From NCBI GenBank assembly GCA_964016885.1, contig OZ024742.1:256804001-256868000 (forward strand): DNA of 64,000 bases, read 5' to 3'. The first letter of the stretch is position 1, and every line of letters starts with the position of its first letter. The position numbers were made by a program, and so were the translations under genes. Source of the DNA: Eledone cirrhosa. Taxonomy: Eukaryota. Below are positions 5,497 through 62,990 of the stretch, piece by piece. Below the pieces are notes generated by a model, which did not search any database, had not been told where the DNA came from, and saw only the letters and a list, made by a program, of their open reading frames with translations.

Positions 5497-5579
5497 TATA
5501 ACGAAGGAAATATGGTAAGGAACCAGGTAGACCAAAACGCACCAAAGTACTAAATAATTAGGGTAGTAGAGTGGGTAAT

Positions 5580-8230: not shown

Positions 8231-8239
8231 CCACCGCTA

Positions 8240-9641: not shown

Positions 9642-9882
9642 TATATATATATATACGGGATAACAGATTATCGTTATAGGTTGTCCACTTAGGTGTAGTC
9701 CAGTTACGGTACTCCGAGTAGTCGATGTTATCAACGCTTGGCTAATTTTTACTCAACAGGGCGTTTCCATAGTGATGTTGGGAGTACGCGGTCATTTCTA
9801 TGTTGTTTACACTTGGAGTAATGATAAATCAAGAAAGAAGAGTGACACGGTTTGCTATACAAAAAGGGGTTCTCTCTTGATG

Positions 9883-9934
<52 letters not shown>

Positions 9935-9937
<3 letters not shown>

Positions 9938-10192
9938 ATAATAATAACTTTGAAGACTAAAATCCAAAGAGGGCTCGATAAGGATAAATATATTTGAAAT
10001 ATATAAGAACCGCAGAGCAAATATTTATTAAATAACAGATTAAAGTTTAAGCAAAGAATCGCTGATTTCACCCTTAACGGGATCTTCTGAAACTAACAAA
10101 GTCAATCTGTAAACGCAGAAGTGGATATTTCAAAAAACGTTGCAACCGGAGGAAGACAGGAAGACGATACTTTGGTTCGTGGAAACGTTCCC
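9935..10192 (+). repeat. Dispersed non-coding repeat family, fold-back prone and unclassified
   Basis: gaagactaaaatccaaagagggctcgataaggataaa...aagcaaagaatcgctg...gttgcaaccggaggaagacagg recurs at ~43670-44180 (-), 47435-48260, 53025-53150, 53500-53780 and 58245-58450. Confidence 0.85.
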
Positions 10193-10559
10193 TTCACAAA
10201 ACATACATGTAATATATACTTAACTATGCAAATATGTAATGGTATAAACATAACTTATACTTAGCTACCACATCAAGACGTAAAATATGCACGTATAGAT
10301 CGTACTATCCGTTAGGGTATAATGTGTGACTGTAATATAGGAAGGTTTTGTGCAATTTATGTTTACAAGCCGAAATTGCCTCAGATTTTTTGTTTAAGAA
10401 GTGGTCTGTGGCGTAGAGCATTTCCAGGGCCTCAGCGGCGCAGAGGTCGGATGGTCTTTTATTTCCGTTATACGATCTAGCCCTAGACAGGATCTCCCAG
10501 TGTAACTTATATTGGGTGTGGTTGATTTTAGATTCCAGATATAAACTGAAAGTAACGTC
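10193..10559 (-). mobile_element. Inverted 3' segment of PLE family B (GIY-YIG C-terminus plus start of 3' UTR)
   Basis: ORF 10305-10589 reads HTQYKLHWEILSRARSYNGNKRP.DLC..EALE.LY..LNK.SEAISACKH, homologous to 12129-12488 and 42793-43089. Confidence 0.9.
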
Positions 10560-13756: not shown

Positions 13757-13948
13757 GCGGTGGATTGGCAGTATCGGTAGATGGTCGGACGCCATGCTTT
13801 CCAGCATAGTTACGTCCCTTTACGATCTGAGTTCAAATCCTGCCGAGGTTGACTTTGCCTTTCATCCTTACGGGGTCGATAAAATAAAGTACCAGTAATG
13901 CACTGGATAATTGCTGGCCTTGTGCCTAAAGTAGAAACAATTATTTAT
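13757..13948 (+). mobile_element. tRNA-derived SINE, same family
   Basis: gcggtggattggcagtatcggtag...gagttcaaatcc...gcctttcatccttacggggtcgataaaataaagtaccag...gtagaaacaattatt. Confidence 0.9.
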
Positions 13949-13959
13949 TTCGAATGCCT

Positions 13960-19540: not shown

Positions 19541-19544
<4 letters not shown>

Positions 19545-21372
19545 CTTGTGTTTCTTTCCATCTTCCGTTAGCTTTCCCCTGTGTTGTTTACTTGTCTCAC
19601 TCGCTTTACGCGTTTCAATTGTCCCAATAACTTAATTTAGTTATTGTCGCACCAACGTGAGGTATATGATTTTTAATGCGATGAAATACCAATGATCGTT
19701 GGCAAATCACTGATGAGGGACTCATTTTAATACATCTAATCCATGTGCAACCATGCAGTATTCTTCTACCCATATTTTTCATATATTTACCTAAACTGCG
19801 ATTCTATGTTTCTCTATTTCTCTCTTACTGCTCCCTCGTTCTCTCTGTTTCTCTTACTTTCTTTCGTCCCCTCTGTCATGTCAGTTAACACTTTCTCTCT
19901 ACTGACCTCTTCCTCGCACTTCCACTCACTCACTCTCTGTTTCTCCTCTTCTTACTTCCTCCCGTCCGCTACGAACCCTATTTTCCTTCTTTCTCACATC
20001 GGATTCACTAGCGAAAGGTCTGTTACTTACTCGCTCATGTATTCACCCAGCCTATGCTGACAGAATAACCAAGTTGCTTGTGTTTCTTTCCATCTTCGGT
20101 TAGCTTTCCCCTGTGTTGTTTACTTGTCTCACTCGCTTTACGCGTTTCAATTGTCCCAATAACTTAATTTAGTTATTGTCGCACCAACGTGAGGTATATG
20201 ATTTTTAATGCGATGAAATACCAATGATCGTTGGCAAATCACTGATGAGGGACTCATTTTAATACATGTAATCCATGTGCAACCATGCAGTATTCTTCTA
20301 CCCATATTTTTCATATATTTACCTAAACTGCGATTCTATGTTTCTCTATTTCTCTCTTACTGCTCCCTCGTTCTCTCTGTTTCTCTTACTTTCTTTCGTC
20401 CCCTCTGTCATGTCAGTTAACACTTTCTCTCTACTGACCTCTTCCTCGCACTTCCACTCACTCACTCTCTGTTTCTCCTCTTCTTACTTCCTCCCGTCCG
20501 CTACGAACCCTATTTTCCTTCTTTCTCACATCGGATTCACTAGCGAAAGGTCTGTTACTTACTCGCTCATGTATTCACCCAGCCTATGCTGACAGAATAA
20601 CCAAGTTGCTTGTGTTTCTTTCCATCTTCGGTTAGCTTTCCCCTGTGTTGTTTACTTGTCACACTCGCTTTACGCGTTTCAATTGTCCCAATAACTTAAT
20701 TTAGTTATTGTCGCACCAACGTGAGGTATATGATTTTTAATGCGATGAAATACCAATGATCGTTGGCAAATCACTGATGAGGGACTCATTTTAATACATG
20801 TAATCCATGTGCAACCATGCAGTATTCTTCTCCCCATATTTTTCATATATTTACCTAAACTGCGATTCTATGTTTCTCTATTTCTCTCTTACTGCTCCCT
20901 CGTTCTCTCTGTTTCTCTTACTTTCTTTCGTCCCCTCTGTCATGTCAGTTAACACTTTCTCTCTACTGACCTCTTCCTCGCACTTCCACTCACTCAGTCT
21001 CTGTTTCTCCTCTTCTTACTTCCTCCCGTCCGCTACGAACCCGATTTTCCTTCTTTCTCACATCGGATTCACTAGCGAAAGGTCTGTTACTTACTCGCTC
21101 ATGTATTCACCCAGCCTATGCTGACAGAATAACCAAGTTGCTTGTGTTTCTTTCCATCTTCGGTTAGCTTTCCCCTGTGTTGTTTACTTGTCACACTCGC
21201 TTTACGCGTTTCAATTGTCCCAATAACTTAATTTAGTTAATGTCGCACCAACGTGAGGTATATGATTTTTAATGCGATGAAATACCAATGATCCTTGGCA
21301 AATCACTGATGAGGGACTCATTTTATAACATGTAATCCATCTGCAACCATGCAGTATTCTTCTCCCCATATT

Positions 21373-21378
<6 letters not shown>
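19541..21378. repeat. Tandem array of a 532-bp unit, ~3.45 copies, near-identical
   Basis: Unit start gttgcttgtgtttctttcc occurs at 19541, 20073, 20605 and 21137. The array is flanked by (TA)n on both sides. Confidence 0.97.
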
Positions 21379-21458
<80 letters not shown>

Positions 21459-22039: not shown

Positions 22040-24110
22040 GATCAGGGTGGTTGAGTATCCAAATTGATATTATGTTTATTCCAACAGGAAAGAAGATGTG
22101 GTTTCATGCGTGGACAACTTCTGAAAAATACAGCTTTAGAGTTGAGACAACTATTAGGAGATATCATATATTGTAGGATTCTATATTTCTCGGTTATGCA
22201 CAAAGTACGTCTCTTTGTGCCTTTTTGGTATTTTTTAAATGGTCTAAAATAGACCAATCAATGAAATATGGAATCCCATGTCCTTTCATCTCCCACTCCT
22301 CTATTTTCCTGAGCTGTAGCCTTCTTTTTTTCTGGGTGTCTGAAGGAATCAATATGTGTGTAGTATCTTAGTTTGCATTCGTCTTGAGGCATACCCACAT
22401 ATAACTCACTGATGGCTGGTTGGTTGGTGTTTATAGTTATAACTTTAGCCTCATGTACGACGGATTTTGTGTTCCATTTGCCCTGTAAAAGACATTCTTC
22501 TAAATATCTGTAAAAACATCCTGGATTTCCTCTATGTGTATTCTCGTTGGTAATCTTGGATTTCAATGATGGATAGCAAGAATAGCTAATCTTAACTAAG
22601 TTGCTATTAAAAATGTCATGGTATCTATCTTATTGGGGGAATGTTTCTCTAAAAGATCAAGGAACGTTCTACCTACGTTAGTTTCAACAGTTAAAGAAAA
22701 TGAGTGTATGAAGGAATTTATTTTATTTTTCTATTATTATGTATAGTAGTATTAGGAGGAGTAGTTATACATTTAATTTGTTCGTTGAATCCGCTATTTT
22801 TAAGGGCCTTATTATAGTAAGGGGCTGCTTTATTAAACATTTCCTCAGAGGAAGATATGGTTGTAAATAAAATTGGAAGATGGCATGAATCTTTGTATAT
22901 TTTAGATTTTCGTTAGGTATATGATAGGGTTTAAAAGAAGCAGTAAGTAAATCAAGATTGATATCGAGGAAGTTACTATTGGTTAGGTTAGTATGTATTG
23001 TAATTTAAAGTTTAGATTATCTAATTTTCCGAAATGTTTCAATGTTCTGACCATCTTTTGTATGAGCGTCTGCCAGTCCTTCTTCTCGGTATAACCCGAT
23101 AGTGTGGTTGGGGAATTTCTATTTAAGTGTGTGGAGGAGGAATAAGCCAAGTAAATAGCATACATCGGCACTATCAAAAGAACCCATTGAGACATCAAAA
23201 GCGTTTTCTGAGGTTGATTTTTTCACCCAGGTTTCATCTTTGGCAAAAAGTATAGTTTTTCTGGCATGCAAAATTACTCCGTCCTCTAATTTTGATATAT
23301 TAGTAAATCTAATACTTTGGCTAATAAGGAGTGAGTGATAGAAGACTAGAAATCTACTATATCAAATTGGGTAAATCAGGACTTATTTTTCTCTTGTATA
23401 TTATTAAACCAAGCTATAGCAGTGGAAGTATTTAACTATTGTAATAATTCTCTTTTACTTCTTATTTGATAAATGATACTTCTTAAGATTGTTTTACTAG
23501 CAAGAGCAATTTCTGATTTAGCAGGGTTAATAAGCCTACAAATAGGTCGTTAATTGAAGTCTAATTTATGGCATTTACGTGTAATATAGCCTTCACGTTT
23601 TGTTAGGCTTTCAGTTCGATTGTCCATTCCTAATTTTCCAGCTGAATCTTTAGCTTCATTATTTATAATTATAGTTGTTATTATTACCTTTTGGGTATTT
23701 AGTAGTAATACTATCCGTTAAAAGTTGGTTATATAAATGGTTGATAACTTCATATAGATATTTTGTTTTATCGGAAAATATAAACGTATTATTAGAGGTT
23801 TTAATATTAGAAATATCATTAGAAAGTTTAGTTTGAAAATGATTATTGTGCTTACAAAATTTTAGTTGGTTGATCATATTAACTAAGTCTAATTCGAAGG
23901 GTGCCATATCTTTAAATGTTGGTAGGTAGTTGTATGACTTAATGTTGAATTAGTACGGAACTGCCCGTCAAATACCATAGCTGCCCATCTCATTCTTTGT
24001 ATAAAACGTTCAAATGTATCAATTAACATTTTGGGGTAAGATGCATTAGAAGGTGTCGGAATATTTTCATATATATCCATATTCAATGTTGGTAAATTTC
24101 CTATAAATGT
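22040..24110 (-). mobile_element. Penelope-like element (Naiad-type), nearly full ORF, heavily decayed
   Basis: NIPTPS..Y..MLI...E.FI.RMRW, PFELDLVNMI, FSDKT..LYE, FDVSMG, YVGM...K.RYYTH..SFRHP and CLNSK..F.RSCPRM. There are many stops and frameshifts. Confidence 0.88.
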
Positions 24111-25697: not shown

Positions 25698-25887
25698 AAT
25701 AATTGTTTCTACTTTAGCCACAAGGCCAGCAATTACCCAGTGCATTACTGGTACTTTATTTTATCGATCCCATAAGGATGAAAGGCAAAGTCAACCTCGG
25801 CGGAATTTGAACTCAGATCGTAAAGGGACATAACTATGCTGGAAAGCATGGCGTCCGACCCTCAACCGATACTGACAATCCATCGCC
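25698..25887 (-). mobile_element. tRNA-derived SINE, same family
   Basis: Reverse complement of the SINE at 13757 (aataattgtttctac...ggatgaaaggcaaagtcaacctcggcggaatttgaactc). Confidence 0.9.
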
Positions 25888-26611
25888 TTTTTTTAATACA
25901 AGGAATGTATAAAAAATAAAAATAAAGTTATATATTAAGGGAATGTGTATAAATGTGTGTATATGCACATACATATGTACATGTATGTGTATGTACAACT
26001 TCATTTGTATGGTGAAAATATGTGTGCGTAAGTACATACATGAGGGCAAACTTATTAGTGTATGTGTGACCACAAATACATATATATATATGTTGAAAAT
26101 AGAAAGTGTAAGATAATGGAGTTAGCGTACATACAGACTTAGGGACGAACGGCTGAAATATATACACACACAAGGATAAAAGGACGCACGCGTATAAACA
26201 TACACACACGCACAACCACATACATGTATTTGATATATACAGGGATAGTAGTGTATAAAGTTAACGCAGTGTCAGGCGGAAGGTCGATACAAATATAAAA
26301 TATGATGAATAAATGAAATAATATATAAGATAAGAATAAAAAAAAAGATTAAGGCAAAGAGAAAGTAAGTGGGAGGGGGTAATAAATAAAATACACAAGA
26401 AAAAATAAATAAAAAGTCGAAAACATGCATATACGTGAAACAAGTTCATACACACATACATATATATATAAATATATATACATACAGACATAAACACGTA
26501 CACAAAAGCATACATACACATACACGCATATACATACATATACAGGCATGCATACATACATCTACACATATATACACATACATGCACATCTATTCACACC
26601 CATGCACGCGA

Positions 26612-28547: not shown

Positions 28548-28930
28548 CTAATTGATACAATTTACACTATTAGAACCTTTAGGTTTATAATAAAAGTAAG
28601 AATTTGAAATGGCGTGGGGGCAAGAAGAGAATATCTCAGACTTTCTATTAAGTAAGGTTTCCCTAGAGAAAATTATAGAGTGGGTCTCAAGGATACAGAG
28701 ATTACAAAATCTAGTATGTGTTGAAAGGTTATTAGAGCGTGCTACTATACGCCAATTAAGGCTATATGGTATATTAGCCCCCTTATGATCCCAGATATGG
28801 TGTGCTAGAGAAGTCGAATTCTTAAACCTAACATGTTTAAAATTAGAGATATGAGAATTAAACCTAGTCTTAAAAGTGTTAGGTGTAGAGCCTATATATG
28901 TGCTATTAGAGGAATTGGTTTTAACTACAT
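28548..28930 (-). mobile_element. PLE GIY-YIG endonuclease fragment; a probable long AT-rich tail runs toward ~26700
   Basis: YVVKT..STYIGST..FKTRFNSH.SNF...STSLAHHIW.....LNWRIV...FCNLCILE...LLNRKSEIFSSCPH. Confidence 0.88.
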
Positions 28931-29164
28931 ATATATATACATGTGAAAACTCATACGTAAACGCACACACATGCACACATACACGCACACATACGATTGC
29001 ATTCGTATACATATACAAACACGTATACACATACATGCACTCATACGCATACATACATATATAAAAAAAACAACCGTATGAATAAACGGGTATAAAATAG
29101 ACGCAAGTATACATACATAAAAGCGGCTGAGGGACAACGGAAAATATTGGCAGTTAAAAACACA

Positions 29165-29563
29165 AGTGACAACCACCAGCAGCAACCTAGCAGCCACCAG
29201 CGAACGATATGTGGGTATGACACAAGACAAATTCAAAACGCGTTATTACTCACATGTCGCATCTTTCCGACATCCTTAACAAAGATTTGCAACAGCTCTG
29301 GCTAGCAGAATTTGGGATTTGAAGGACCAAGGTATCCATTATAAATTTGATTGGTCAATATTGAACCACTCTAAAGAATACGCAAGAGGAACAATAACAT
29401 GCGCATTCTGCATAAGTGAAAACTACTGGATTTTACAGACTTTAAATTACCCAAAACCTGCTTAAATGCAAAAACAGAAATGTTCACCTGTTGCATACAA
29501 ATGAAAGCACACTTGCTTTCCAGCTCATATAAACCTAATCACTTTCAGACAGATCCTCCATGA
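29165..29563 (+). mobile_element. PLE GIY-YIG endonuclease fragment from another family, flanked by ~220-bp inverted repeats (28945-29170 and 29771-29985)
   Basis: RYVGMTQDKFKTRYYSHVASFRHP*..ATALASRIWDLKDQGIHYKFDWSIL...CAFCISE. Arms are gctgagggacaacggaaaatat / atattttccgttgtccctcagc. Confidence 0.82.
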
Positions 29564-32969: not shown

Positions 32970-35606
32970 TATCATAAATCTTTCGTTGCACATCTGCAAC
33001 ATCGTCAGTGGTGTTATATTTTCCTCCTGTTGTGTTGTATGTCTACGCCATTTTTATTCAGTCTGTCTATATATTTATTTATTTATTTGCTTGTTTGTTT
33101 ATTTTATTTTGTCTTCTTTGCGCATGCGTTTGCGTGTGTGTATAGTGTTTTGTTTGCTGTGTGATGGGTGACTAGTGTGTGTTTATGTGCTTGTTGTTAT
33201 TGTGCTTGTGTATGTATTTATTTATTTATTTATTTATTTTATTTACTTATTTATACTTCTCTTAGGTCAGTGTCGTTTGTTTGGGTGTTTCTGTTATTCC
33301 ATTCATTCTTTCTGTTTAGCCTTGGTCTTCTAATTTCTATTTCACTGGCCTCTCTGACTTGCCTATCTGCTATGTCATTTCTATGTTTAGATATTATTCT
33401 AATTTCTATGTTGTCTATGTTACCGTCATGTTGTTGTCTAGCATGTTCGTATAGTACTGACCCGTTTTTTCGTCCTTTTAGTTCTCCCCAGTGTTGGTCT
33501 ATCCTTTCACCTATGCTACGAGCTGTGTCACCTATGTATGTTGTTGTCATGTTTCTGCAAGTACCCTCTGTACATCTTATGCTATAGACTACGTTTCTAG
33601 TTTTACAGTTTATCCGGCTTTCACCTTACATATGATACATTTCCTATTAGTACAGTGGGTTTTCTTAAAAGGGTAGGTTTTGCTGATCAGGGATTTTAAG
33701 GTGGTTCCTGGCTTTTCTACCACTTTTATTTTTAAGTGGGTCTTTCTCAGGGCCTTTCTACACTGGTTAGCTAATTTCCCTCCAGGGGTGGCGTCACAAA
33801 CATGACTCTCTGGTATCTCTGGTTGTCGTACCATGAGGTGGCTTTCCCTATCTTATGTCTAGCCCTATCTAAGCTATTCCATGATTTGCTCCTGTATAAT
33901 GGGCAAATTCCTTTCATGTCCAGTTATATGAGGGTCTTAAACTTTTCCATGGCTCCTTTGTGTACTCTGACTCTGTCTCTTTGGTTGTAGCCAGATAACT
34001 GCATGCGGTTGATGAAGTGTTGGATGTGTCATTCCATTTCTGTTGGGTCGCACATGCGGGACACATTCTTCATCACTCGTACCAAATCTGCGATCAGAAT
34101 ATTAAACTTAGCACTACTGGACATTGCTGAGTTTTTGAGTATCAGGTATTTGGAGGCCATGGGTTTAGCATAGTGTGAGTGGAGAATTTGGGCTCTCTCG
34201 TCTATAGTGTTAATCCAGAGTTCTGTGTCTAATACAGGTAGTCTATTGTTAGGGTGTTTGGAAGGGAAGTCGATAGTTACAGTTATACTCTGGTGTATGG
34301 AATTAGCTATCTGCTGGATGCTTTCCATCGTGCTACGTTCTAATTCAAACTTGTTAGCGCTCTCTAGTGGGAGTGTTCTTATAACTATATTGATATCGTC
34401 TATATAACGAGAGTACATGATGAGGTCTATGGAGCTTTCATTAAGGAGATCTTTAAGTCTCCTTTCCCACCATACCATGAAAAGGTTGGCAACATCACCA
34501 GCTATGCTGACGCCGATGGCTGCTCCCTCATTTTGGGTGTAGAATTTCTCGTTGAACTTAAATTAGTGGCCCTTTAGGGTAGTTTTGATACTAGCCCCTA
34601 TTGCATGTGCGACCATTTTTCTTACCTGATCATTGTTTTGGGGGGTCCGTATAGCTTTGGTCCACCCAATCCACCTTCCCATGGGAGTCTTTTTTGCCAT
34701 TGAGGTTATGGTGGGGGGTCTACCTCTTATAGGTCTACTAGGGCAGAAACATCTAAGTTCATGGCTGTCTAGGTAGTCAGTGTGGTAGGTAAGTCTAAGT
34801 ATGAGGCCCAGTTCGTCCGTGTCGACGTCGCAGAACTCCACCTCACTCTCAATGATCATCTCCACATCTTTTCACAGCAAAATCAATGTTAATGGATGGG
34901 TACAGTGACACCACATCCATGCTGCCTATTATGCAGTTGGATAGGCTCCTGTTTTTGTTGCACTCACTGATTCTGCTGAGGAGGTCCTCTGTACTGTCAC
35001 ATGCATCTGGGGACATCTTGATTATGGGGCGTATAACCATTGAGAGGAAGTAGGAGATCCTGTAGTTGCTAGCTATATTAGCTCTGCATACGGGTCTTAT
35101 TGGTGGTCCTGTTGTCGGGTCGTCGACTACCTTGTGGTCTTTGCGGAGCCATACAAGGGTGGTATGCTATTGTTAGACGCCTGGAAGTTGTTGGCAGTGC
35201 GTCTGCTTGGCTTTATGATGTCAGTCCACATCATCATGTGAGCGTTGAGGATTTTCTCTCTCCCATCGTGTGTTTGTTGTGCAATTTCGCTCGTGATGGT
35301 GATGTGGGTTTGCATGGCCCCGATGTAGTTCGACATGCTATCTATTGACATCCTACCAGACCTATCCGTGGGTAGACATACTACCTCACCATCCCTTGTG
35401 CGCTGCTTGAGGCTAACCAAGCCTTCTACAGGTTTCCTCCCAAGTTGTTGGGCCTCTGGTCTGCTCCGTCTCTTAGTATACCTGTCTACTATTTGTCTAA
35501 TCTTATTTCTAGCTATGGTGAACTGTGCCTCTGTCTCGTCATCTATTTGTTGTGGTATGCAAACTCTTTTATTAAAGGGTAACCTCGTAGGATAGATATT
35601 ACCCAT
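32970..35606 (-). mobile_element. Penelope-like element of a different clade (RT plus GIY-YIG), frameshifted, with a decayed hammerhead at ~32970-33013
   Basis: LPTDRSGR, GSMDVVSLYPSI, EGAAIG..IAGDVAN, YSRYIDDI, LPVLDTELW, CTNRKCIIC, YIGDTARSIGERIDQH and LNRKNEW. Tail motif is CTGACGA t gttgca gatg tgcaac GAAA. Confidence 0.9.
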
Positions 35607-37189
35607 CTTATATGTATATATAGATATATATTACCCATCTTATATATATATATATTAACTAGAAATGGATTGACATATATATATAATAAATACATGAAAC
35701 AATCACATGACAACCCTTAATTTTAATTTTGGATATATATATATATATAATATGTTTATGGGTGCATTCCCAATAGGTATCAGGAGCTGACATTTGGTAG
35801 TTACCACTATGATTGGATAACCTCACGGTGAAAACGGTAAGAGCTCAGTTATGAGACTGTAACTCATTACAATTCATTAACTCAACGTTCTCAAGTATCG
35901 CGCGAGCACTAAGCTTAACAATTGTCTTACTAATTTGAATGTCTTGTACTTAGTTACATTTACATCTGTATTAACGCGCACACATTAAATTTCAAACCAA
36001 TATTTATACCAAACACAGCGCTCAAAATTGTTGCTTTAGACTAAGCATGTGGAGACATGGCCTAATAATTACGATCCGAGTCTGTTTCCAGTACATGTTA
36101 ACGTGGGCATGTGTCATTTAGAATAGCCTTTGGTTGACCTATGTATTGTGAGTGAAATTGGTTAGAGGGAAACACTTTGGAAGCGTGTCGGATAGACTAC
36201 AACTATAATTATCACCCCCCCCCCGGTCACTCTTAATCACTGTGTACAAGGATCCAGGGATTTGTTTCGTCACGGGTCCCTCACCATCGGAACAGATCGT
36301 GGTCTGTTGACCATCTTTATTTGTCTTCTCATGAAAAAATAATTTTTCAGATATTTATCCGTTACACTCCATGATGTATTTCAGGATACAATTACAATAT
36401 GTAATAAACCGTTCTACAAGAAATTGAGCAATTTAAAGTTTTAATGTATTAAATATTATATACTACGTGTCATTACAATCCTCTTTATATTTTTCAGGTC
36501 AATTTCGAAGCGTCTCACCATTTTCTTGGTAATTTACGATGACAATAAAACTATTAATACGAAACATCTGGTATATATGTTTCTTTTCTCATCAGTTAAT
36601 GCCTACATTAAACTTACAAAATATTTATTATGGTCTAGAACAATTTTAATTAGGAATTTATTTATATATTTACGACTTGAGATTGTCTTCTTTCCTACTA
36701 AATTAGAAACCATTACTAATATTATTTTCATCACCATCGTTTTACATTATTGTATGTTTCATAAAGGAAAAGATGGCGTTGGAGTGTCTCAGAATATACA
36801 GTTGACATATAGTGCTAAGAGCACTATATGTAAGCTGGTGGCCTACTCCTCTCCGATTTCACCCTTTCATAATTCTTTCTTTTCCGTGCCTATTAATATG
36901 CGTATGTTCCGTATAGTTTACATCTTGAATATTTCATATTCTACTGAATTTTCAACCCTTTTATGTTATTTTACTTACCATCATTTTGCACCTATATTTA
37001 AATGTAAACCTACACACATGTTGACATAGCATTATTCTGAATATTTTTCTACGGAAGACGTAACCAAATTATTAATGGATATTTATTGAAACAGTACAAT
37101 TCGACATGAATTAAATCAAATATCTAGTATATAAGTCTTTCTTATTTAGACACAAACCCAGTAATTTAAGTGTAGTGAAAGCCGATTAT

Positions 37190-37540: not shown

Positions 37541-39119
37541 TCTGGCAGATTACTTTGTATTCTTTGTCCCTCCCTAACGTGTAGCAAAGCTCTGTTCATC
37601 ATAGATATACATAGCTTTGTTTAGAATACGTCATTTCTATTATATTGAAATTACAATACATAAAATGTATGGAGCGCATAGACCTTCTATTATTCGATTT
37701 CCCTCATGCTGTTCGTTTTTTGTAACGGCTGATCTCCTTCTTGAGATGATATTAACCTCCCACGTTTGTTCAGGTGTTGCGTTTTTGATTATTACTTTTC
37801 AAACACCTGTCACAATCACGGAATGTTACATTCGAATATTTTATTACCGCAACAAGTATCGATTCCTTAAATTATTTATGACACTCATTAAGTCAATAAA
37901 AAGTGAATGAGCTCTTCTCGTGTAGATTAAATTCTACAATGACAAATCCAATAATATACAACCCTATATTATTGCAAAAATATTCAGAATATCCGCGAAG
38001 GCTCTCGTCATCCTAACAAAAAATTATGCATTTCGTTTCTGACGCATTTCATTACGTGGTGATGAGAGTTACGTATAAAATTATTATTCAACCATGTAAT
38101 TTTATTACAAAAATTGTAACAGAGCTAATGTATTATACCTTACATTATTCACATACTGTAATTGAATTCAGTCGGTTTCGATGATGGTTGTTCCAGTTGA
38201 TCTATAAAAAAATATACCCTGCATATTAAATTAAGGTGAGAGTGACTAAGCATTACATAGATAGGTCTACTCCTAAAATAAAACACAGTAAGTAATCCTG
38301 AGCCTTGCAAATATGTTTAATCTACAGAGTTGTACCCATAGGTTATGGCTCGACGATCCCTGACAATGAACGGAACAAAGCGAAGATAATACGTCGTTAT
38401 ATGGAGCGGCGAGAACAATTTCACGCAAAGACAAAACTAATTTATTGTATAAACGGAGTTATTAGACTAATATTCTATTTAGGAAACCGAATGATTCTCG
38501 GCTTCGGAGTTTAGAATAATGTAAATAAATGTGTTGAACGAAGATGATAGAGTTTATTAAAATCATAAAGTCAATACTAATTAAATATATACATACACAC
38601 ATATATACACGTGCATACGTGAAAACACCCGCCATACATATGCATGCACATACACGTAGACAAGTGCACACGTACGTAAACCCGGCGCGACACATACCCA
38701 CGTACATATATATATGTGTGTGTTTATATAATTATATATACAAATATAAATATGTTCAACAAACGAACATATATTCACACCCTATGTACGCATATACAAG
38801 ACATACATACGTTCAAATACACATACACACTCATAGAACCCATATATACACATATATACATACGAGGAAGTCAGAGAGAGGGAGGAGGGACAGAGAGAAA
38901 GAGAGATAGTGATGGTGATCAACATTACGTAGTTTGTTACTCGATACGTAAGGAAGTAACATGTAAGCATCATAATAATGTTCTGCTCTACGGCTAAACT
39001 GTCATCGATTGAAAACACATTCAGACACACACACACATACACAAACACACACACACACACACACACACATACACACACACACACACCCATACACACACAC
39101 ACATACACATCGCTTAAGT

Positions 39120-39150
<31 letters not shown>

Positions 39151-39155
<5 letters not shown>

Positions 39156-41197
39156 TAAATCATGTCTTTAGAATTATTAGATAAAATATATACCATTTCA
39201 TGTCCCAATCAGCATAATTAACCATATAAAAAATCAATTGGACCAAGCTATAAGAATAAAGGCTCTTATGAAGAAATCTCCGACAAATAACCGAAAGTGG
39301 CCTCTTCGCGGTGGCCCCAATAGAGTATTTATCCAACATTTCGACAGCATGTAGAAACTGACTAAATATACCATGAACCATACACAATTAGGTGTAAATT
39401 CAAACTTAGAAGGAATGTGTACATACCGTAATTATATCTCTACCATGATTTCATCCGTATTTTTAGACATCCAATTAATAGGAAATGCCCAGTTTTCGGA
39501 TTCATCAATATACAAACTCAAAATTAGACACTTAGTTTTCCAAAGTGATCGCGCCAAAATTAGATTCAAAAATGGCTTAGAACCGCAATGTGGCAGTGCT
39601 CAAGTTAGAAAGAATGTGATTGGTTGCTTACGGCGGGTAGGCTTGTTGTTAGAAAGCGCAGCCAAATATCGCCAAATTGTATCTCAACCTAACGGGAGAT
39701 TATTAAATATAAAGGTTTACATATACATAAAGTTATAGATATATATGCTGCAACCGGTCACTTTGTGGCTCTATAAAGAATTAATAAATTAAATAATAAG
39801 AGCAATATATCATAAATCATGTCTTTAGAATTATTAGATAAAATATATACAATTTCCTCTCCCAATCAGCATAATTAACCATATAAAAAATCAATTAGAC
39901 CAAGCTATAAGAATAAAGGCTCTTATGAAGAAATCTCCGACAAATAACCGAAAGTGGCCTCTTCGCGGTGGCCCCAATAGAATATTTATCCAACATTTCG
40001 ACAGCATGTAGAAACTGACTAAATATACCATCAAGCATACGCAATTAGGTGTTAATTCAAACTTAGAAGAAATGTGTACATACCGTAATTATATCTCTAC
40101 CATGGTTTCATCCGTATTTTTAGACATCCAATTAATAGGAAATGCCCAGAGTTCGGATTCATCAGGAGACAAACTCAAAATTAGACACTTTGTTTTCCAA
40201 AGTGATCGCGCCAAAATTAGATTCAAAAATGGCTTAGAACCGCAATGTGGCAGTGCTCAAGTTAGAAAGAATGTGATTGGTTGCTTACGGCGGGTAGGCT
40301 TGTTGTTAGAAAGCGCAGCCAAATATCGCCAAATTGTATCTCAACCTAACGGGAGATTATTAAATATAAAGGTTTACATATACATAAAGTTATAGATATA
40401 TATGCTGCAACCGGTCACTTTGTGGCTCTATAAAGAATTAATAAATTAAATAATAAGAGCAATATATCATAAATCATGTCTTTAGAATTATTAGATAAAA
40501 TATATACAATTTCCTCTCCCAATCAGCATAATTAACCATATAAAAAATCAATTAGACCAAGCTATAAGAATAAAGGCTCTTATGAAGAAATCTCCGACAA
40601 ATAACCGAAAGTGGCCTCTTCGCGGTGGCCCCAATAGAATATTTATCCAACATTTCGACAGCATGTAGAAACTGACTAAATATACCATCAAGCATACGCA
40701 ATTAGGTGTTAATTCAAACTTAGAAGAAATGTGTACATACCGTAATTATATCTCTACCATGGTTTCATCCGTATTTTTAGACATCCAATTAATAGGAAAT
40801 GCCCAGAGTTCGGATTCATCAGGAGACAAACTCAAAATTAGACACTTTGTTTTCCAAAGTGATCGCGCCAAAATTAGATTCAAAAATGGCTTAGAACCGC
40901 AATGTGGCAGTGCTCAAGTTAGAAAGAATGTGATTGGTTGCTTACGGCGGGTAGGCTTGTTGTTAGAAAGCGCAGCCAAATATCGCCAAATTGTATCTCA
41001 ACCTAACGGGAGATTATTAAATATAAAGGTTTACATATACATAAAGTTATAGATATATATGCTGCAACCGGTCACTCTAGGCTCTATGAAGAATTAATAA
41101 ATTAAATAATCAGAGCAATATATCATAAATCATGTATTTAGAATTATTAGATAAAATATATACCATTTCCTCTCCCAATCAGCATAATTAACCATAT
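39151..41197 (-). repeat. Tandem array of a 657-bp unit (~3.1 copies) with one hammerhead per unit, ending in an inverted partial copy (41218-41396)
   Basis: Unit start tatcataaatcatg occurs at 39151, 39808, 40465 and 41121. HHR on the minus strand: tgtctc CTGATGA atccg...cggat GAAA ccatgg TA gagata. Confidence 0.93.
40092..40171 (-). ncRNA. Type I hammerhead ribozyme (identical copy at 40749-40828, decayed copy at 39435-39514)
   Basis: Canonical CTGATGA/GAAA/TA core. Stem I is tgtctc:gagata, stem II is atccg:cggat with a long extension, and stem III is the palindrome accatggt. Confidence 0.85.
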
Positions 41198-41388
41198 GCT
41201 TGTTCTAATTGATTATTTATATGGTTAATTTTACTGATTGGTAGAGGAAATGGTATGTATTTTATCTAATAATTCTAAAGACATGATTTATGATATATTA
41301 TTCTGATTATTTAATTTATTAATTCTTCATAGAGCCACAAAGTGACCGGTTGCAACATATATATCTATACCTTTATGTATATGTAAAC

Positions 41389-41425
<37 letters not shown>

Positions 41426-41550: not shown

Positions 41551-41589
<39 letters not shown>

Positions 41590-41593
<4 letters not shown>

Positions 41594-41935
41594 AGATCAA
41601 CAGATGGTTAACAGAGTTCCATGTATTTTATTATTAGCATTTCAAAAACAAATATCATCATGTAATAACATTTGCATTTTCGTCAGATAAAATAGGGAGA
41701 CATGATATGAAGGTTAAAACACACTTGTCAATAGTGCAGTTTTAAATCAACATATGAAAATTACTTTTCATATGTTGATTTAAAACTGCACTATTCACAA
41801 GTGTGTCTTAACCTTAATATCATGTCTCATTATTTTATCTGACGAAAATGCAAATGTTATTGCATGATGATATTTGTTTTTGAAATGCGCATAATAAAAT
41901 ACATGTAACTCTTTTAACCATCATTTGATCCTATA
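41590..41935. repeat. Fold-back palindrome with a hammerhead in each arm (41624-41694 minus, 41831-41901 plus)
   Basis: Centre is catatgaaaa ttac ttttcatatg. HHR: tattttat CTGACGA aaatgcaaatgttattgcatgatgatatttgttttt GAAA tgcgca TA ataaaata. Confidence 0.85.
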
Positions 41936-42088
41936 TATTATTTATACTCCAGTCCTACAAACTGTAGAGTGCTATTTATCCGATATCTACAATAAAACTC
42001 ACCTCCTATATATATATATATTTATTAAAATAACAGATTAAAGTTTGAGCAAAGAATCACTGCTTTCACTCTTAACGGGATCTTCTCA

Positions 42089-43660
42089 ACCTCTCTATAC
42101 AAGTTGAGGCCAATCTCTCGGTCGTTAATTACCTTCACGTTACCCTCAATTTATTGAATGGGTTGTATTACGCGTATAGAAAGCCGAATGATACGCTTAA
42201 TTACATAAGTAAGCATTCCAACCATCCTGTCAGCATAACCAAGAACCTGGTAAGAAACGTTTCGTTGAGGCTTTCCCGTCTTTCCACCAACGAGCGCATT
42301 TTCAACGACCATTGCACTTATTACAATGAAGCTGTTGCTCGAAGTGGATTTGTCGATAAGGTAGCATATACAGAGTACGAAAATAGACCTAGAAGAAATA
42401 GATCCCGTCGCATTTGTTGGTTTAACCCACCATATAATATGGAGGTGGCCACACCATTAGCTAAGAACTTTCTTTCCCTTATTACGAAGCATTTTCACCC
42501 TACACACAAATATAGTAACATTTTTAATAGAAACACTATTAAAATTTCTTACTCTACGACTCCTAAACTTGCACATAACATCACAGTTTTAAATTTAGCT
42601 AAACTACCTAGCCGTAGGAACACGTGCAACCCTGTAGTTAGTACTAACTGTAATTGAAGGAATCGGGCTGATTGCCCCCTATCCGGGAAATGCCTCTCTA
42701 GTAACATTGTCTACAAATGTAAGGTTGTAACACCCACGTCCCGTAAGGCCTACATATGGTTAACCGCCAATAGTTTCAAGCAGCGTCTTTACATGCATAC
42801 CCATTCTTTTCGTTACCCTCTAAGAAGGAATATGACGTCTCTTTCAGCTTATATCTGGAGTCTAAAAGACAACCACACCCAATATAAGTTACACTGGGAG
42901 ATCCTAGCTAGGGCTAGATCGTATAACGGAAATAAAAGACCATGTGACCTCTGCGACGCTGAGGCCCTGGAAATACTCTACGCCACAGACCACATCTTAA
43001 ACAAAATATCTGAGGCAATTTCGGCTTGTAAACATAAACTGCACAAAACTTTCCTGTATTACAGCCCCACGTTATACCCTAACGGATAGTACGATCTATA
43101 CGTGGATATTTTACGTCTTGATGTGGGAGCTAAGTATATGTTTTGTTTATTCCTTTACTTATTTGCATAGGTAAGTATATATTACCCGTATGTTTTGTGA
43201 AGGTATGTATAACTTCTCGTACGTATATTTGATTGTTATGGCGTATAATTTTTATATATTCTGGTATTTAGGTTTTGGCTATGTGTACACGGCAGTTTTG
43301 CGTCTGCGTGAGTATGCAGGTTCGTACGTATGGTGGGTATGTGTATATGTGTACTTCTTGTTTTAGTTGACTTACGTCTCCGAACATTCGTGTATTTATA
43401 TGTAGGTATGTGTGTGCGCTTGTTATGTACGTATTTATTTACTTATATACGTTTATATAATTATTTATTTATTTGTACACAAGCATACACACGCATACAT
43501 ATTTATATGTGCGTGGTTTTGTATACCTATGGTAAGGTTTTGCGTATGCTTGTGTATGTACGTATTTGTTTGCGTGTATGTATTTCTTTCTTTCTATTAC
43601 TTCTGTATTGTATTTATTTACTTTGTTCTTAACTCTGTAGCGGAGATTCATTTGGTCTCC
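42089..43660 (+). mobile_element. Penelope-like element (family B), 5'-truncated: RT thumb, linker, GIY-YIG and 3' UTR, with a single in-frame TGA at 42655-42657
   Basis: ORFs 42154-42657 and 42793-43089 are in the same frame. The sequence between them reads STNCN*RNRADCPLSGKCLSSNIVYKCKV...KAYIWLTANSFKQRLYMH with no other stop. Confidence 0.93.
43181..43249 (+). promoter_or_regulatory. Candidate eukaryotic SECIS element in the PLE 3' UTR
   Basis: tac ccgta tgtttt GTGAA g gtatgtat AA cttctc gtacgtat att TGAT tgt tatgg c gta. It shows helix I, an internal loop, a GUGA/GA quartet, helix II and an apical AA. The 5' arm of helix II is 1-2 nt shorter than typical. Confidence 0.55.
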
Positions 43661-44175
43661 TAGTTAGAATTTTAGTCTACGACTTCTGCTATACAATTTA
43701 CGTGGTTTTGTCTTTGCGTGCTATTGTTCTCCACGCTCCACATATGACTTACTATCTTCATTTTTTCGTTCATTGCCAGAGAACGTCTCTATGCACCACC
43801 GAAGAGAACATTAGTCTACGACTTCTTTTATACCATAAACGTGGTTCTGTCTTTGCTCGAAATTGTTTTTCACCGCTCCTATTAATGACGTATTATTCGT
43901 TTTTTCCCGTTCTTTGCCAGCGAACGTTTCCACGAACCAAAGTATCGTCTTCCTGTCTTCCTCCGGTTGCAACGTTTTTTGAAATATCCAGTTCTGCGTT
44001 TACAGATTGACTTTGTTAGTCTCAGAAGATCTTGTTAAGGGTGAAAGCAGCTATTCTTTGCTTAAACTTTAATCTGTTATTTTAATAAATATTTGCTCGA
44101 CGGTTCATATATATTTGATATATATTTATCCTTATCGAGCCCTTTTTGGATTTTAGTCTTCAATTTTATTATTAT

Positions 44176-44213
<38 letters not shown>

Positions 44214-45255: not shown

Positions 45256-45269
45256 CATTTACATTTTCT

Positions 45270-46956
45270 GCAAGTTACCTTCCACCTCGAGAATAATTTG
45301 TATTACCCATATGGGAAACTCAACGACAACCCAAACTATATCCACCGTATTTCTAACCATTCTAAGAATATAACTAATAACATACTTAAAAAGATCTCCC
45401 TCCACATATCTCGAATGTCTGCAAAGAGTAGATATTCAACGAACACGCGCCATATTACAACCATCGCTCAAGAGAAGCGGCCTCCGGGAGTACATCTCAT
45501 TATCCAGCGGATCCAGGAGGGATAGCCGCCGCTCACGCCACGTGACGTGGTTCGACCCTCCCCATAATGCGAAGTTACAACACCAATTGGGAAGATCTTT
45601 TTTAGACTCCTCGACAAACACTTCCCACCACAATATCACTAACATAAACACCGTCACACTTTCCTACAGAACGCTACCCAAGTTTGCATAAAACATCGCT
45701 TCTTCAAGCAACAAAAAATGTCTCTCTAACAAAAGAAATAACCATGATATTAGTGGAGAGCAGACTAGGAGGTGTAATTGTCCGGATAGATCATCATTCT
45801 CCCTCAACCACAGATGCTAAGAACGTAACGTGGTCTGCCAGTGCAATGTGAGGGCGGAAACATCTAACAAAGCCTACATCGGATTAACTGCCTGCGATTT
45901 TAAGAAACGGTATTACTAACACCGACATACCGTTAGAAACCCGGCACGGCGACACGCAACAGCACTTTCGGGTTATATTTGGGTTCTCCAAGACAATAAA
46001 ATCACCCACCTTCTAAGTTGGAGCATACTTTCCAAGGCAAACACTTACTCGGGACGACCCCATCCGAGTAATTTATGCTCCGAGGAAACGATCCAAATGC
46101 TGTTTGCTAAGGGCGAACTCTTAAAAAATAACTATGAACACAGAATGCGTAGGACATACCATACTTATAAACCTCCTCATGACCCAGATCATTACACCTC
46201 GGCTCTAACATATTTTCCTATTTGCCGACTAAGATAGAGAAAACCCCAGCATACTTATGTAGAAGTAAATATTTTTCTTTCTTCTTTTTTCTTAATGTCT
46301 TCCACTCTATTTCCTCTTACTTTTCTTTTTTCTTCATTAGTTGCTCACTCCTTTACACTTGGTTGCCCATCGCTTATATTCAGCTTCATTCTTCTTTAGA
46401 TTAACCCTAGTATTTCCACTCCCGTTACATCTACATAGCACTGGTTGAAAAAAAAACCGGTGCTTTCTCAAGAGATGATGTTCTAGTGTTTTGGACGAAC
46501 TAATAACTACATTTTATTAATTTGGATTTTGGTATTTAAATTTTATTTGCTTCGCCTCCTGGCCAACGGTTAATTCTACGATTTCTTTGCTCATCACAAG
46601 CTCCGAACCTCTTTTAGAGATAGCTGTATATAATTCCCTCTTAACGCATGACCAACCTACCTCTACAGGTCAGATTGTCATCTTACTCCTTCCCCTTGTA
46701 CTACAGGCAAGTTCAGCCAACCTCTACCCCACTCGCCTCTATAAAGAGATTTATCTGTTTTTTACAAATCCTTTGACCACTCCCCGTGATTGAAAAGCAA
46801 CTTTGAGAACTATTTGACACGACCCTACTGGGACGCTTTCATTTCATGCCCATATATGGAGTTATCCCTTGATAAGTTCAGCCAGGCTACTGATGTCCTA
46901 ACAATACCGCGTTAGTTCAGACATAGCTGTCGAAACGGCCGGAGCTCAGCCGTCGG
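45270..46956 (+). mobile_element. Penelope-like element related to family A, 5'-truncated and decayed, ending at a hammerhead
   Basis: LYYPYGKLNDNPNYIHRISNH, VTWFDPPHNA, RRCNCPD and AYIGLTACDF. The tail is homologous to 24634-25410. Confidence 0.88.
46864..46956 (+). ncRNA. Hammerhead ribozyme variant with core TTGATAA (U3-A8)
   Basis: atccc TTGATAA gttcagcc...tagctgtc GAAA cggc cggagctca gccg TC gg. The 3' strand of stem I is truncated in this copy. Confidence 0.6.
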
Positions 46957-51623: not shown

Positions 51624-51757
51624 TATGTGTGGGAGGTGTGTGTGTGAGTGTGTGTATGTGTATTCTCTTATGTTACTTTATTCAAACACGTAGATACATT
51701 TATAAACCACAATATGTATAGCGGTAGATCACGTTTGGCTTCATTATTTATTAAGGA

Positions 51758-52300
51758 GGGCGGTGGATTGGCAGTATCGGTAGAGGGTCGGACGCCATGC
51801 TTTCCAGCATAGTTACGTCCCTTTACGATCTGAGTTCAAATCCCGCCGAGGTTGACTTTGCCTTTCATCCTTACGGGGTCGATAAAATAAAGTACCAGTA
51901 ATGCACTGGGTAATTGCTGGCCTTGTGCCAAAAGTAGAAACAATTATTTATTAAGGGCGGTGGATTGGCAGTATCGGTAGAGGGTCGGACGCCATGCTTT
52001 CAAGCATAGTTACGTCCCTTTGCGAACTGAGTTCAAATCCCGCCGAGGTTGACTTTGCCTTTCATCCTTACGGGGTCGACAAAATAAAGTACCAGTAATG
52101 CACTCGGTATTTTGCTGGCCTTGTGCCTAAAGTAGAAACAATTATTTATTAAACTAAGTTACGTCCCTTTACGATCTGAGTTCAAATCCCGCCGAGGTTG
52201 ACTTTACCTTTCATCCTTACGGGGTCGATAAAATAAAGTACCAGTAATGCACTGGGTAATTGCTGGTCATGTGCCTAAAGTAGAAACAATTATTTATTAA
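51758..52300 (+). mobile_element. Head-to-tail cluster of three SINE copies (two full, one 5'-truncated)
   Basis: Copies start at ~51758, ~51955 and ~52158. Each is bounded by attatttattaa. Confidence 0.92.
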
Positions 52301-52601: not shown

Positions 52602-52655
<54 letters not shown>

Positions 52656-52685
52656 AGAACAAAAGATGGTTAAAAGAGTTCCATG

Positions 52686-52757
52686 TATTTTATTATGCGC
52701 ATTTCAAAAAACAAATATCATCATGCAATAATATTTGTGTTTTCATCAGATAAAACA
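52686..52757 (-). ncRNA. Type I hammerhead ribozyme (same family as 41831)
   Basis: tgttttat CTGATGA aaacacaaatattattgcatgatgatatttgtttttt GAAA tgcgca TA ataaaata. Confidence 0.8.
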
Positions 52758-52933
52758 TGAAGACATGATATGAAGGTTAAAAAACACTTGTGGATAGTTC
52801 AGTTTTAAATCAACATATGAGAAGTAGTTTTATTATATATATTATATTATGTATACTCCAGACCTACAAACTGTAGAGTGCTTATTATCCGATATCTGCA
52901 TTGCTTTATTGTACTACAATAAAACTCACCTCC

Positions 52934-53026
<93 letters not shown>

Positions 53027-53490: not shown

Positions 53491-53954
53491 TCATTTTTTG
53501 AAGACTAAAATCCCAAAAGGGCTCGATAAGGAAAAATATAGTTCAAATATATAAGAATAGTAGAGCAAATATAAATGGGTATTATCTTCGTTTTTTCCCG
53601 TTCTTTTCCAGGGAACGTTTCCAAGAACCGAAGTATTGTCTTCCTGTCTTCCTTCGGTTGCAACGTTTTTCGAAATATTCGCTTCTGCGTTCACAGATTG
53701 ATTTTTTTTAGTTTCAGAAGATCCCGTTATGGGTGAAAGCAGCGATTCTTTGCTTAAACTTTAATCTGTTATTTTAATATATATATATATATAATGTAGG
53801 AGGTGAGTTTTATTGCAGTACAATAAAGCAATGCAGATATCGGATAAGTAGCACTCTACATATTGTAGGACTGGAGTATAAATAATATATAAAATATGTT
53901 GATTTAAAACTGCACCATCCACAAGTGTTTTTTAACCTTCATATCATGTCTCCC

Positions 53955-54025
53955 TATTTTATCTGACGAAAACGCAAATGTCATCGCATGATGATATTTG
54001 TTTTTGAAATGCGCATAATAAAATA
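53955..54025 (+). ncRNA. Type I hammerhead ribozyme (same family), in the right arm of an inverted repeat 52650-52940 / 53792-54058
   Basis: tattttat CTGACGA aaacgcaaatgtcatcgcatgatgatatttgttttt GAAA tgcgca TA ataaaata. Confidence 0.8.
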
Positions 54026-54121
54026 CATGGAACTCTTTTAACCATCTTTTGATCTTATATCTTATATATATATATATATATATATACTTGCGTACGCACA
54101 CACACACACACACAGATACAT

Positions 54122-58476: not shown

Positions 58477-60534
<2,058 letters not shown>

Positions 60535-60750: not shown

Positions 60751-60989
60751 TTTCCTGCCAGTGGCATATCAAATAAAGTAATATTCATCTGAGGAAGCCG
60801 TTCTCATAATCAACAGCAAATGCATGGAGAACCGTAGAATAATTATTATGATTAAACGATATATGTAACCTCAGCATGTTATTTTATTATTTTTATAAAA
60901 TTCTCCATCGTAACTAAAATAACGTTTGTTGAGAGCTTTCTCCTGCTTACTCCTGTTTTTACCAAAACAATCTTTTCAGACCACATACA

Positions 60990-62990
60990 GCTCCAGCACT
61001 GTTGAGCACTTTGAGAATAAACGGCTGAAAATAGGATGCAATCTTCTAGCATCGCTGAAGGACATTCCCTTGCCCAGCAAAAAGGAGTACACCAGACAGA
61101 TAATCCTTAAAATAGACTCGTTTGTATGCAGAATGCGATGGAAGGCCTTCCACTACGATGGGAAAACCCATACGAATGATGTGAACACTCACTGGCAGCC
61201 CGGACTGTACGTTCGGTTTTAAATCTAAAAAAATCCATCGCAAAACAAACTTATGGTGTGCTTTGAGAAAGAGATGGCCAATATTATTTCAGGCGTCAAA
61301 TTCATGAGTTTCCCGTCTAAGGAGCAGCCTCACCTCAAGAAACTGGCGAATAGGATCTCTGCAGTAAAACGCCCAGACGGAATTCTGGTTCATGCGGATA
61401 AAACGGGTAACCTCTACAACTTGGATGTGGCAACTTATAGAAAACGAATACTTAAGGAACTTAGAAATAATTACAGAAAAACTACACAGGCTAACCAAAC
61501 GACATTAACGAGCGGACTAATGGAATAGTGAATAAACTGAGCATTGCGGATAGGACCAGGCCTTATCAACTCAAAGAACCCCGTATCTTGCTGAAGGATC
61601 ACAAACCGAACTTCGAAACGGAACTCCCAGTCAGATGTATAGTACCATCAAATCTGACATCGGGTGTATTAGCAAGCAAATACTGGACAGAATCTTACCA
61701 ACCCTTAGGAAAAAGATCCAATTACAGCAATGTAACGGGGGAAGTGATTGAGTGGTTTAACGGCCTGCAGTGCAAAGGTAGGACACATTTTATACAGCTT
61801 GATATATGTAACTATTACGCATCCATATCGCCGGTGGTTCTTAACAAAGCACTTATGTTTGAACGCAGGCATACTGATTTAAACAGGGATTAAATTAACT
61901 TCATCCATACAGCCAGGAGGACACTGATAGCTTTCAATTTTGACATCATGATGGGATCTAGTGACTCGGCGCAGGTTTCTGACCTGGTGGGCCTCTACAT
62001 CCTCAGTGACCACCTGAAAAGCGAGATCCCATCGTTAGGTGTGGACTATACCGCGACGATGCGTTGTTTACGCTACTCGACCACAGCAACAGCATGATAA
62101 ATAGGACTAGAAATAACTTGATTACATTTTTCAAAAATATAGACCTCAGGATAGACAGAAAATAATAGAAAGGTAGTCAACTTCCTAGATGTTACACTCA
62201 ATCTAGAGTCTGGCCCCTACTACCCGTACCACAATCCGAACGAGTGCCTCAAGTACGTGAATGCCAACTCCAATCATACCGGGTAAGTCAGGAGGGCCAT
62301 TATTAATAGTGTATCCCGTAGGATTTCTTCTCTGTCAGCTAGCCAGGAAACCTTCCATAGCGTAGCTAGCTACTATAATGCTGCCCTTAGTAATGCTGGT
62401 ACGAAGAATGAATTAAGTTTATACCTAGTCTAATGAATTACGGTAACGCTGACGGTCACACTTCAGTGGGAATGAACGACAGGATCAACACGACTAGGAC
62501 TTCATTACTCGTCCCTGATACAACTCCACTGAGTAATCATGGATGAACTGCTAACCATGGCTTATCATGAAGTGACCGGACCTCGCCTATTTTGGAAAGC
62601 AGTGAAGCCGACACAGTGGAGCCGTGGGGGACATATGTGGGACCGGGAGTGAGCGTAGAATGTACTAACGCCTCCCTCGCTATGAGTGGTGACCACTCAG
62701 CTCGGGGTGCTCCGACCGGCGTAACCAGTCCAACAGGCAGCGACGAATTGGGGGTCATGGCTATTCCAGACGTCCACAGCGTATATATAACGCATGATCT
62801 GACGGGACGGGTGCAGGTACTGTTGACTACAACAAGAAGCGAACCCGTTCCCGTAATGTCATTTGGTTTACGCACCCCCCTTTACGCCGGTTTACGCAAC
62901 AACATAGCGGCCTCTTTCTTCAGGGCTTTGGATAAGCACTTACATAAGAAAAAAACCGGTACCACGCCATCTTCAATAGACTAAAATAGA
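60990..62990 (+). mobile_element. Penelope-like element (Naiad-type): N-terminus plus RT, decayed, with GIY-YIG missing
   Basis: SLKDIPLPSKKEY...DSFVCRMRWKA, VHADKTGNLY, LLKDHKPNF, FIQLDICNYYASIS, FDIMMGSSDSAQVSDLVGLYIL, GLYRDDAL, VNFLDVTLNL and WFTPP-like motif at ~62865. Confidence 0.9.

Follow-up and report, generated by a model that had tools for sequence, protein, structure and literature searches.

The locus analysed here raises the question of whether a SECIS-like stem-loop, located behind a retrotransposon reading frame that carries an in-frame TGA, is what is left of an element that once directed selenocysteine (Sec) incorporation, and whether the retrotransposon family bearing it encodes a selenoprotein. 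The window (the whole 64,000-nt stretch of Eledone cirrhosa DNA that was analysed) is microsatellite-rich animal DNA with many decayed Penelope-like elements (PLEs), and the stem-loop belongs to one such family, referred to here as family B.

A Penelope-like element with Hydra-clade motifs

The copies of family B on which the analysis relies, and the principal features of the copy at 42 kb, are the following:

42018–42092, minus strand: piece of the element 3' end in inverted orientation, directly adjoining the site of 5' truncation, as is typical of PLE insertions
42086–43089, plus strand: 5'-truncated ORF with reverse transcriptase (RT) thumb, CxCx5C linker and GIY-YIG endonuclease (EN) with CxxC and CxH, ending at TAG 43087–43089
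42655–42657, plus strand: in-frame TGA at the second Cys of CxCx5C in the 42-kb copy, candidate Sec codon
43090–44178, plus strand: 3' UTR of about 1.1 kb with a GT-rich tract and a duplicated unit of about 140 nt, followed by (TA)n at 44179–44207
44023–44047, plus strand: hammerhead-like core CAGAAGA...GAAA near the element 3' end
10560–12486, plus strand: copy 2, interrupted by a SINE at about 11563–11753 and ending before the hairpin
11991–11993, plus strand: the same in-frame TGA in copy 2, candidate Sec codon
9906–10559, minus strand: inverted copy with the EN 3' part, the UTR up to the 5' core of the hairpin, a deletion and the element 3' end

Domain order determined by tblastn showed a C-terminal GIY-YIG endonuclease after the RT, and the motif residues (C192-N-(TGA)194-x5-C200; C290/C293, E296, N309 and C318/H320; no CCHH) match the definition of the Hydra clade given in the accessible part of PMC8557442, which would place family B in this clade. 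According to the same part of that source, Hydra-clade elements including Hydra-1_Obim share with family B the CxCx5C linker, the lack of CCHH, the CxxC and CxH motifs around E and N, the (TA)n insertion that is also present here, and a 3' hammerhead-type core, whereas family B differs in its longer UTR and in having A for the usual U in the hammerhead core. Identity with Hydra-1_Obim was rejected, as that element represents another family and its linker retains Cys codons (by eye). The core reads CAGAAGA, as against CUGANGA, in all seven listed family copies (44023–44047 and those at 10089(-), 47590(-), 48190, 53081, 53715 and 58401(-)), with A replacing the U of published Hydra cores, and this can be interpreted either as a ribozyme that has degenerated while the family still spreads or as a tolerated variant.

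An AlphaFold model of the linker and EN had a pLDDT of 90.8; Foldseek returned nothing significant for this model (best E 0.78), its top rows being GIY-YIG nucleases (Hpy188I, T4 EndoII), and the family proteins had no match in Pfam. The copies of family B in the window lack the 5' end; a relative, P0182, carries RWR and DKT motifs and is 56% identical over the RT part. Protein searches for members of family B (near, shorter and longer lengths; 50% representatives) gave best identities of 45–49% and none above 56%, and a GTDB contig scan gave one weak, irrelevant locus out of 53 candidate stretches. The accessible part of the supplement of the O. vulgaris repeat paper held no match to three family motifs, and the associated Zenodo consensus library may contain the family (PMC13282606).

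The ORF can be linked to the 3' end of the UTR because of the inverted fragment at 42018–42092 together with the inverted copy at 9906–10559. The latter had been described in the earlier note as truncated near 10193, inside the stem-loop, but it instead has an internal deletion, whose ends correspond to 43203 and 43919 and coincide with a 3-nt AGG microhomology, and it then continues to the element 3' end. Copy 2 stops at the equivalent of 43150, upstream of the hairpin. The complete hairpin is therefore seen in one copy only within the window, so there is no covariation among copies to draw upon. The duplicated unit of about 140 nt lies at 43666–43939 in the UTR and has a related copy at 38352–38530, and the SINE-like repeat of about 190 nt that interrupts copy 2, with a target duplication, occurs at 11563–11753, 13757–13949, 25698–25889 and 51743–52300.

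The remainder of the window holds a variety of other repeats. At least three more decayed Hydra-type PLE families were found, at 22069–24068(-), 28548–29435 and 60986–62421(+), as was a decayed PLE of another clade at 33251–35630(-), in which the RT is followed by GIY-YIG with cysteines between the motifs and which is Neptune/Nematis-like by eye. An array at 58573–60487 repeats a 310-nt unit 6.2 times at 99% identity, each unit having a minus-strand CUGAUGA...GAAA hammerhead core, and looks like a retrozyme or a PLE pseudo-LTR tandem. Another repeat family with inverted 3' ends (41551–41946, 52612–52956 and 53777–54086) has a CUGACGA hammerhead-like core by eye, further hammerhead-like cores lie at 19054(+) and 26764(-), and tandem arrays at 19541–21385 and 39148–41399 have units of about 532 nt and about 657 nt that are 96–99% identical.

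An in-frame TGA at a conserved linker cysteine

Both of the two family B copies that cover the linker have TGA in place of its second Cys, and this is the sole stop that they share over the 337 codons compared. The position is Cys in 120/120 listed homologs (of 200 found). Of 370 proteins fetched, with duplicates retained, 364 span it, and 345 of these have Cys, 13 a gap and 6 another residue. Both sets contain open frames only, owing to the way in which they were built, and any relative with a stop is thereby kept out of them. None of 40 fetched early-ending proteins terminates at the linker Cys. Family A of the same window has TGT at this site in both of its copies and is sister to family B together with P0182 in a quick tree (48 rows, SH-aLRT 98), and because this sister family carries TGT the TGA is a derived state. 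The copies of family A (5578–9644 and 45259–46189) are in inverted arrangement, with no relaxed-pattern SECIS match (see below) behind the ORF.

The simplest alternative to a Sec codon is that the TGA is a real nonsense mutation, that the source element made RT only or nothing while EN was supplied in trans, and that the hairpin arose by chance from the GT/AT-rich sequence of the UTR. Non-autonomous PLE derivatives, as described in the accessible part of bioRxiv 10.64898/2026.07.22.740005, lend this some credibility. The placement of the stop speaks against it, as only 7 of the 139 single-base changes that create a stop fall in invariant Cys codons, so that a random shared stop would strike such a residue in about 5% of cases, and so does the EN frame after the TGA, which is open in the 42-kb copy with its catalytic and Cys/His motifs intact. 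Among 32 other stops in the Hydra-type copies of the window, one was aligned to a Cys, and it was off-frame.

Selection between the two TGA-bearing copies was evaluated from four-fold and zero-fold degenerate sites. The RT part had 16/72 four-fold and 25/345 zero-fold changes (p=0.0007), indicating purifying selection, and because the RT part diverged in this manner both source lineages bore the TGA while under selection; judged from these substitutions, the TGA probably passed through active lineages. The EN showed no purifying signal between the same copies (four-fold 5/52, zero-fold 22/269; p=0.78), in line with a nonsense mutation, and the private changes of copy 2 in codons 262–337 were 11 nonsynonymous and 1 synonymous. 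Zero-fold divergence of the EN (22/269) was nevertheless well under the synonymous level of the RT (p=0.002), which argues against an EN released from selection and thus against the nonsense interpretation, while its four-fold divergence was not significantly lower than that level (p=0.09). On this substitution evidence constraint on the EN would be a better explanation than its release from selection, barring homogenisation of the 3' part by recombination.

The stem-loop compared with published SECIS definitions

The stem-loop and the structure that competes with it comprise the following parts:

43181–43249, plus strand: type I SECIS-like hairpin of the 3' UTR, the sole complete copy within the window
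43197–43201, plus strand: G followed by UGAA, 5' strand of the kink-turn core in its GUGA form, the same in the inverted copy
43202–43229, plus strand: helix II with a 2-nt asymmetry, consisting of a 9-nt 5' arm, an apical loop (43211–43218) and an 11-nt 3' arm
43230–43233, plus strand: UGAU, 3' side of the core, fitting KGAW
43152–43203, plus strand: competitor of the SECIS-like fold, an upstream hairpin of -13.8 kcal/mol in which the GUGA is base-paired; only one of the two structures can form at a time

Its core is laid out as G43197, UGAA at 43198–43201 and a 5' arm of 9 nt at 43202–43210, after which AA (43211–43212) opens an apical loop of 8 nt, at the lower limit of the 8–30 nt range, and the 3' arm (43219–43229) has the canonical length of 11 nt. 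The pairing drawn by eye in the earlier note (helix I, UGAA/UGAU, helix II and apical AA) is borne out by the fold of the isolated 69-mer at -12.0 kcal/mol, with pair probabilities of 0.81–0.96 in the upper part of helix II, and the placement of the hairpin in the 3' UTR is likewise correct, the ORF in front of it being that of a Penelope-like element. Two registers are possible for helix I: the one originally drawn pairs 43183–43190 with 43237–43245, and the other pairs 43188–43194 with 43240–43246 (7 pairs, 4 of them G-U) using only bases common to both copies. The inverted fragment near 10193, which had been taken to preserve the 5' part of the structure, does keep the GUGA and the seven bases of the alternative helix I, but it differs at 43186–43187, inside the helix originally drawn, and that register is not preserved in it.

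The likeness to a type I SECIS consists of the UGAN/KGAW core, the apical AA, the two helices and the 3' UTR location. The core has UGAA and UGAU opposed, with tandem G-A pairs, and the hairpin lies 541 nt beyond the in-frame UGA (minimum 51–111 nt) and 94 nt beyond the TAG. It differs from a type I SECIS in its 9-nt 5' arm, its 2-nt bend, its GUGA and its lack of an Rfam match; the GUGA_AA variant is known and is rare in invertebrates except sponges, according to the accessible part of PMC3473315.

Four SECISearch1 patterns, re-implemented from the accessible supplement of PMC3753652, allow 10–13 nt (loose) or 11–13 nt (default) between UGAN and AA. The hairpin matches 0/4 of the re-implemented patterns because its 5' arm places only 9 nt between these motifs, and no match to any of the four occurs on the sense strand of 43090–44180. 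Short spacing had been recognised from the start and does lie below the published ranges, although the usual span from UGA to AA is 11–14 nt (loose) or 12–14 nt (default) and not the 11–12 nt then assumed. Rfam scans likewise gave the hairpin no covariance score above background of the kind that the earlier note had looked to, with no SECIS family at E≤10 in either a 2.5-kb or a 101-nt stretch, and none window-wide at the gathering threshold. In addition, its stability is that of the background (z=-0.40; 63/200 shuffles fold equally well). These three results are all as expected if the TGA were a nonsense codon and the hairpin a chance fold, and the same holds for the low cost of loose patterns in this DNA, where the four patterns gave 4, 6, 34 and 140 matches (default 6, loose+ 140) before energy filters in the 128 kb of both strands. 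The four strict-pattern matches lie elsewhere in the window and none folds as a SECIS; that at 41658 (minus strand) sits in the hammerhead-like stem of another repeat (by eye), and such false matches arise because of the long stem in the CUGACGA repeat family.

When the default pattern was relaxed to a 9-nt arm, it gave 14 matches in the 128 kb, among which the minimum free energy (MFE) structure had the SECIS shape for this hairpin only, and the hairpin was the sole match on the sense strand of 43090–44180. Shuffles of this stretch preserving 2-, 3- and 4-mers matched the relaxed pattern in 28, 27 and 22 of 1000 cases and combined it with the SECIS shape in 2, 3 and 3 per 1000, and a separate custom descriptor was matched by 8/2000 shuffles. 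Motif and shape together thus occur in just 0.2–0.3% of shuffles, which counts against a chance fold; the relaxation was chosen post hoc with the hairpin already known, so that a fair range for chance is about 0.2–3%. The filter and grading code of SECISearch3 (stem2 7–15, bending ≤2, energy ≤-4) was applied by hand, and the hairpin passes in its bulged register with 9 pairs and -6.3 to -7.5 kcal/mol, with its loop of 8 and its bending of 2 both right at the limit. The unbulged register is excluded by its energy, and the resulting grade is B at best, as computed without the Covels term.

A 2-nt loss in the 5' arm was suggested in the earlier note as the cause of the short spacing. Slippage of this kind is plausible because the 42-kb copy alone lacks 2 nt in another TA run in comparison with three other copies. 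Duplication of a dinucleotide early in the 5' arm produced in silico a 12-bp helix of -14.2 kcal/mol, although this arm-lengthening is unspecific because the default pattern accepts 155 of 160 two-base insertions. Since the spacing falls short and the covariance models found no match, the 42-kb hairpin cannot be filed as a canonical SECIS and is considered borderline. The element context supports a SECIS, with a TGA at a near-invariant Cys, a place in the 3' UTR, and a motif and shape that are rare among shuffles.

Flanking sequence changes the predicted fold in favour of the overlapping hairpin at 43152–43203, which takes up the GUGA. Helix II had a probability of about 0.58 in 151 nt, 0.02–0.08 in 311 nt and about 0.15–0.4 in 0.7–1.6 kb, and that of helix I was ≤0.03 once flanks were added. 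ViennaRNA scores neither kink-turns nor SBP2 binding. The competing hairpin gave z=-2.9 (4/500 shuffles; folding window chosen post hoc) and may either act as a switch or have arisen by accident in this copy. With the 5' flank of the inverted copy and an arm longer by two bases, the full SECIS was the MFE structure in about 150 nt (p about 0.75) and not in about 310 nt (p 0); this result is context-dependent and is not counted as SECIS support.

The competing hairpin also bears on a second alternative, in which the UGA is leaky without selenium, near-cognate decoding sets the ratio of RT to RT-EN, and the SECIS-like hairpin is unrelated or part of the 43152–43203 structure. Leakiness would account for the conserved UGA, the constrained EN and the non-canonical SECIS, and the competitor is more stable than the SECIS-like fold in the 42-kb copy. 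In the inverted copy, though, the competitor is far less stable (-7.9 as against -13.8 kcal/mol), no unusual stem-loop that might promote read-through lies directly after the UGA in either TGA-bearing copy (z between -0.2 and +0.8), and insertion of a near-cognate Trp or Arg would break the conserved Cys site. UGA-A is, moreover, not the leakiest stop context, and we regard this alternative as improbable. That the UGA encodes Sec through a working SECIS elsewhere, the hairpin being incidental, would explain its non-canonical form but is very improbable, as the sense strand of 43090–44180 has 0 matches to the published patterns and this hairpin as its sole relaxed match.

Candidate selenocysteine coding and known elements

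In our assessment the hairpin is, with a probability of roughly 0.6, a type I SECIS that decayed after insertion, belonging to a Hydra-clade Penelope-like family with one selenocysteine codon in its single RT-EN ORF. A nonsense codon followed by a chance fold is judged unlikely, although it is the alternative to be taken most seriously, and family B would in that case be an ordinary decayed PLE. Under the selenocysteine interpretation, the UGAA/UGAU quartet of the active source element would form a kink-turn bound by host SBP2, which would recruit eEFSec and Sec-tRNA, and the UGA upstream of the hairpin would be decoded as Sec within a Cys-rich, putatively Zn-binding linker. Sec would then take the place of a putative Zn ligand and the endonuclease would be translated, while termination at the UGA would yield an RT-only protein. 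After its insertion, the 42-kb copy would have had the 5' arm of its helix II shortened by 1–2 nt, and it may no longer work. These steps are modelled on established SECIS biology and on the precedent of the Naiad elements, to which the anatomy of this locus can be compared.

Selenoprotein-encoding transposons were described in the accessible part of PMC8557442 only in four Naiad families, and its authors predicted that more would be found behind apparent stop codons. In clams and spiders, Naiad elements carry UGA codons at the positions of Zn-finger cysteines together with type I SECIS elements, and none of the Hydra families in the table of that source is annotated with UGA or SECIS. Naiads and family B have in common that they are Penelope-like, with in-frame UGA at conserved Zn-finger-like cysteines, a type I SECIS or SECIS-like structure in the 3' UTR and (TA)n targets, and in spider Naiads the UGA is found in a CX2-5CxxC motif that is described there as partly shared with the Hydra linker. 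They differ in that Naiads have an N-terminal EN with CCHH, whereas the EN of family B is C-terminal and lacks CCHH, and membership of family B in the Naiads was rejected for this reason. Furthermore, the portions of PMC8557442 available report 3–4 UGAs and grade A SECIS elements for Naiads, in comparison to one UGA in the available part of family B and grade B at best by hand. The Naiad SECIS lies 1–21 nt past the stop in three of four families, as opposed to 94 nt in a 1.1-kb UTR, and its first bases in Fig. S3 contain AUGA where family B has GUGA.

Among the literature matches listed, from a search that most subscription papers fell outside, no Sec-coding Hydra-clade or cephalopod element was reported, and the accessible main text of the O. 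vulgaris repeat paper has 0 occurrences of 'seleno' (PMC13282606). We lean, by a narrow balance, towards the view that a Hydra-clade family independently switched its linker Cys to Sec and gained a GUGA-type SECIS, which would extend selenoprotein coding in transposons beyond the Naiads for the first time, as at least its third origin.

If this is true, such families are mis-annotated as dead, and Sec would have been reached repeatedly and convergently at a Cys-rich motif beside PLE endonucleases, here in a distant clade with the opposite domain order. A single UGA between RT and EN would also offer a clean test of selenium control of retrotransposition and of the spread of SECIS elements to host genes, as 5'-truncated copies would scatter SECIS-bearing UTRs across the genome. 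With Sec positioned between the reverse transcriptase and the endonuclease, the selenium supply of the host could gate synthesis of the endonuclease and hence transposition.
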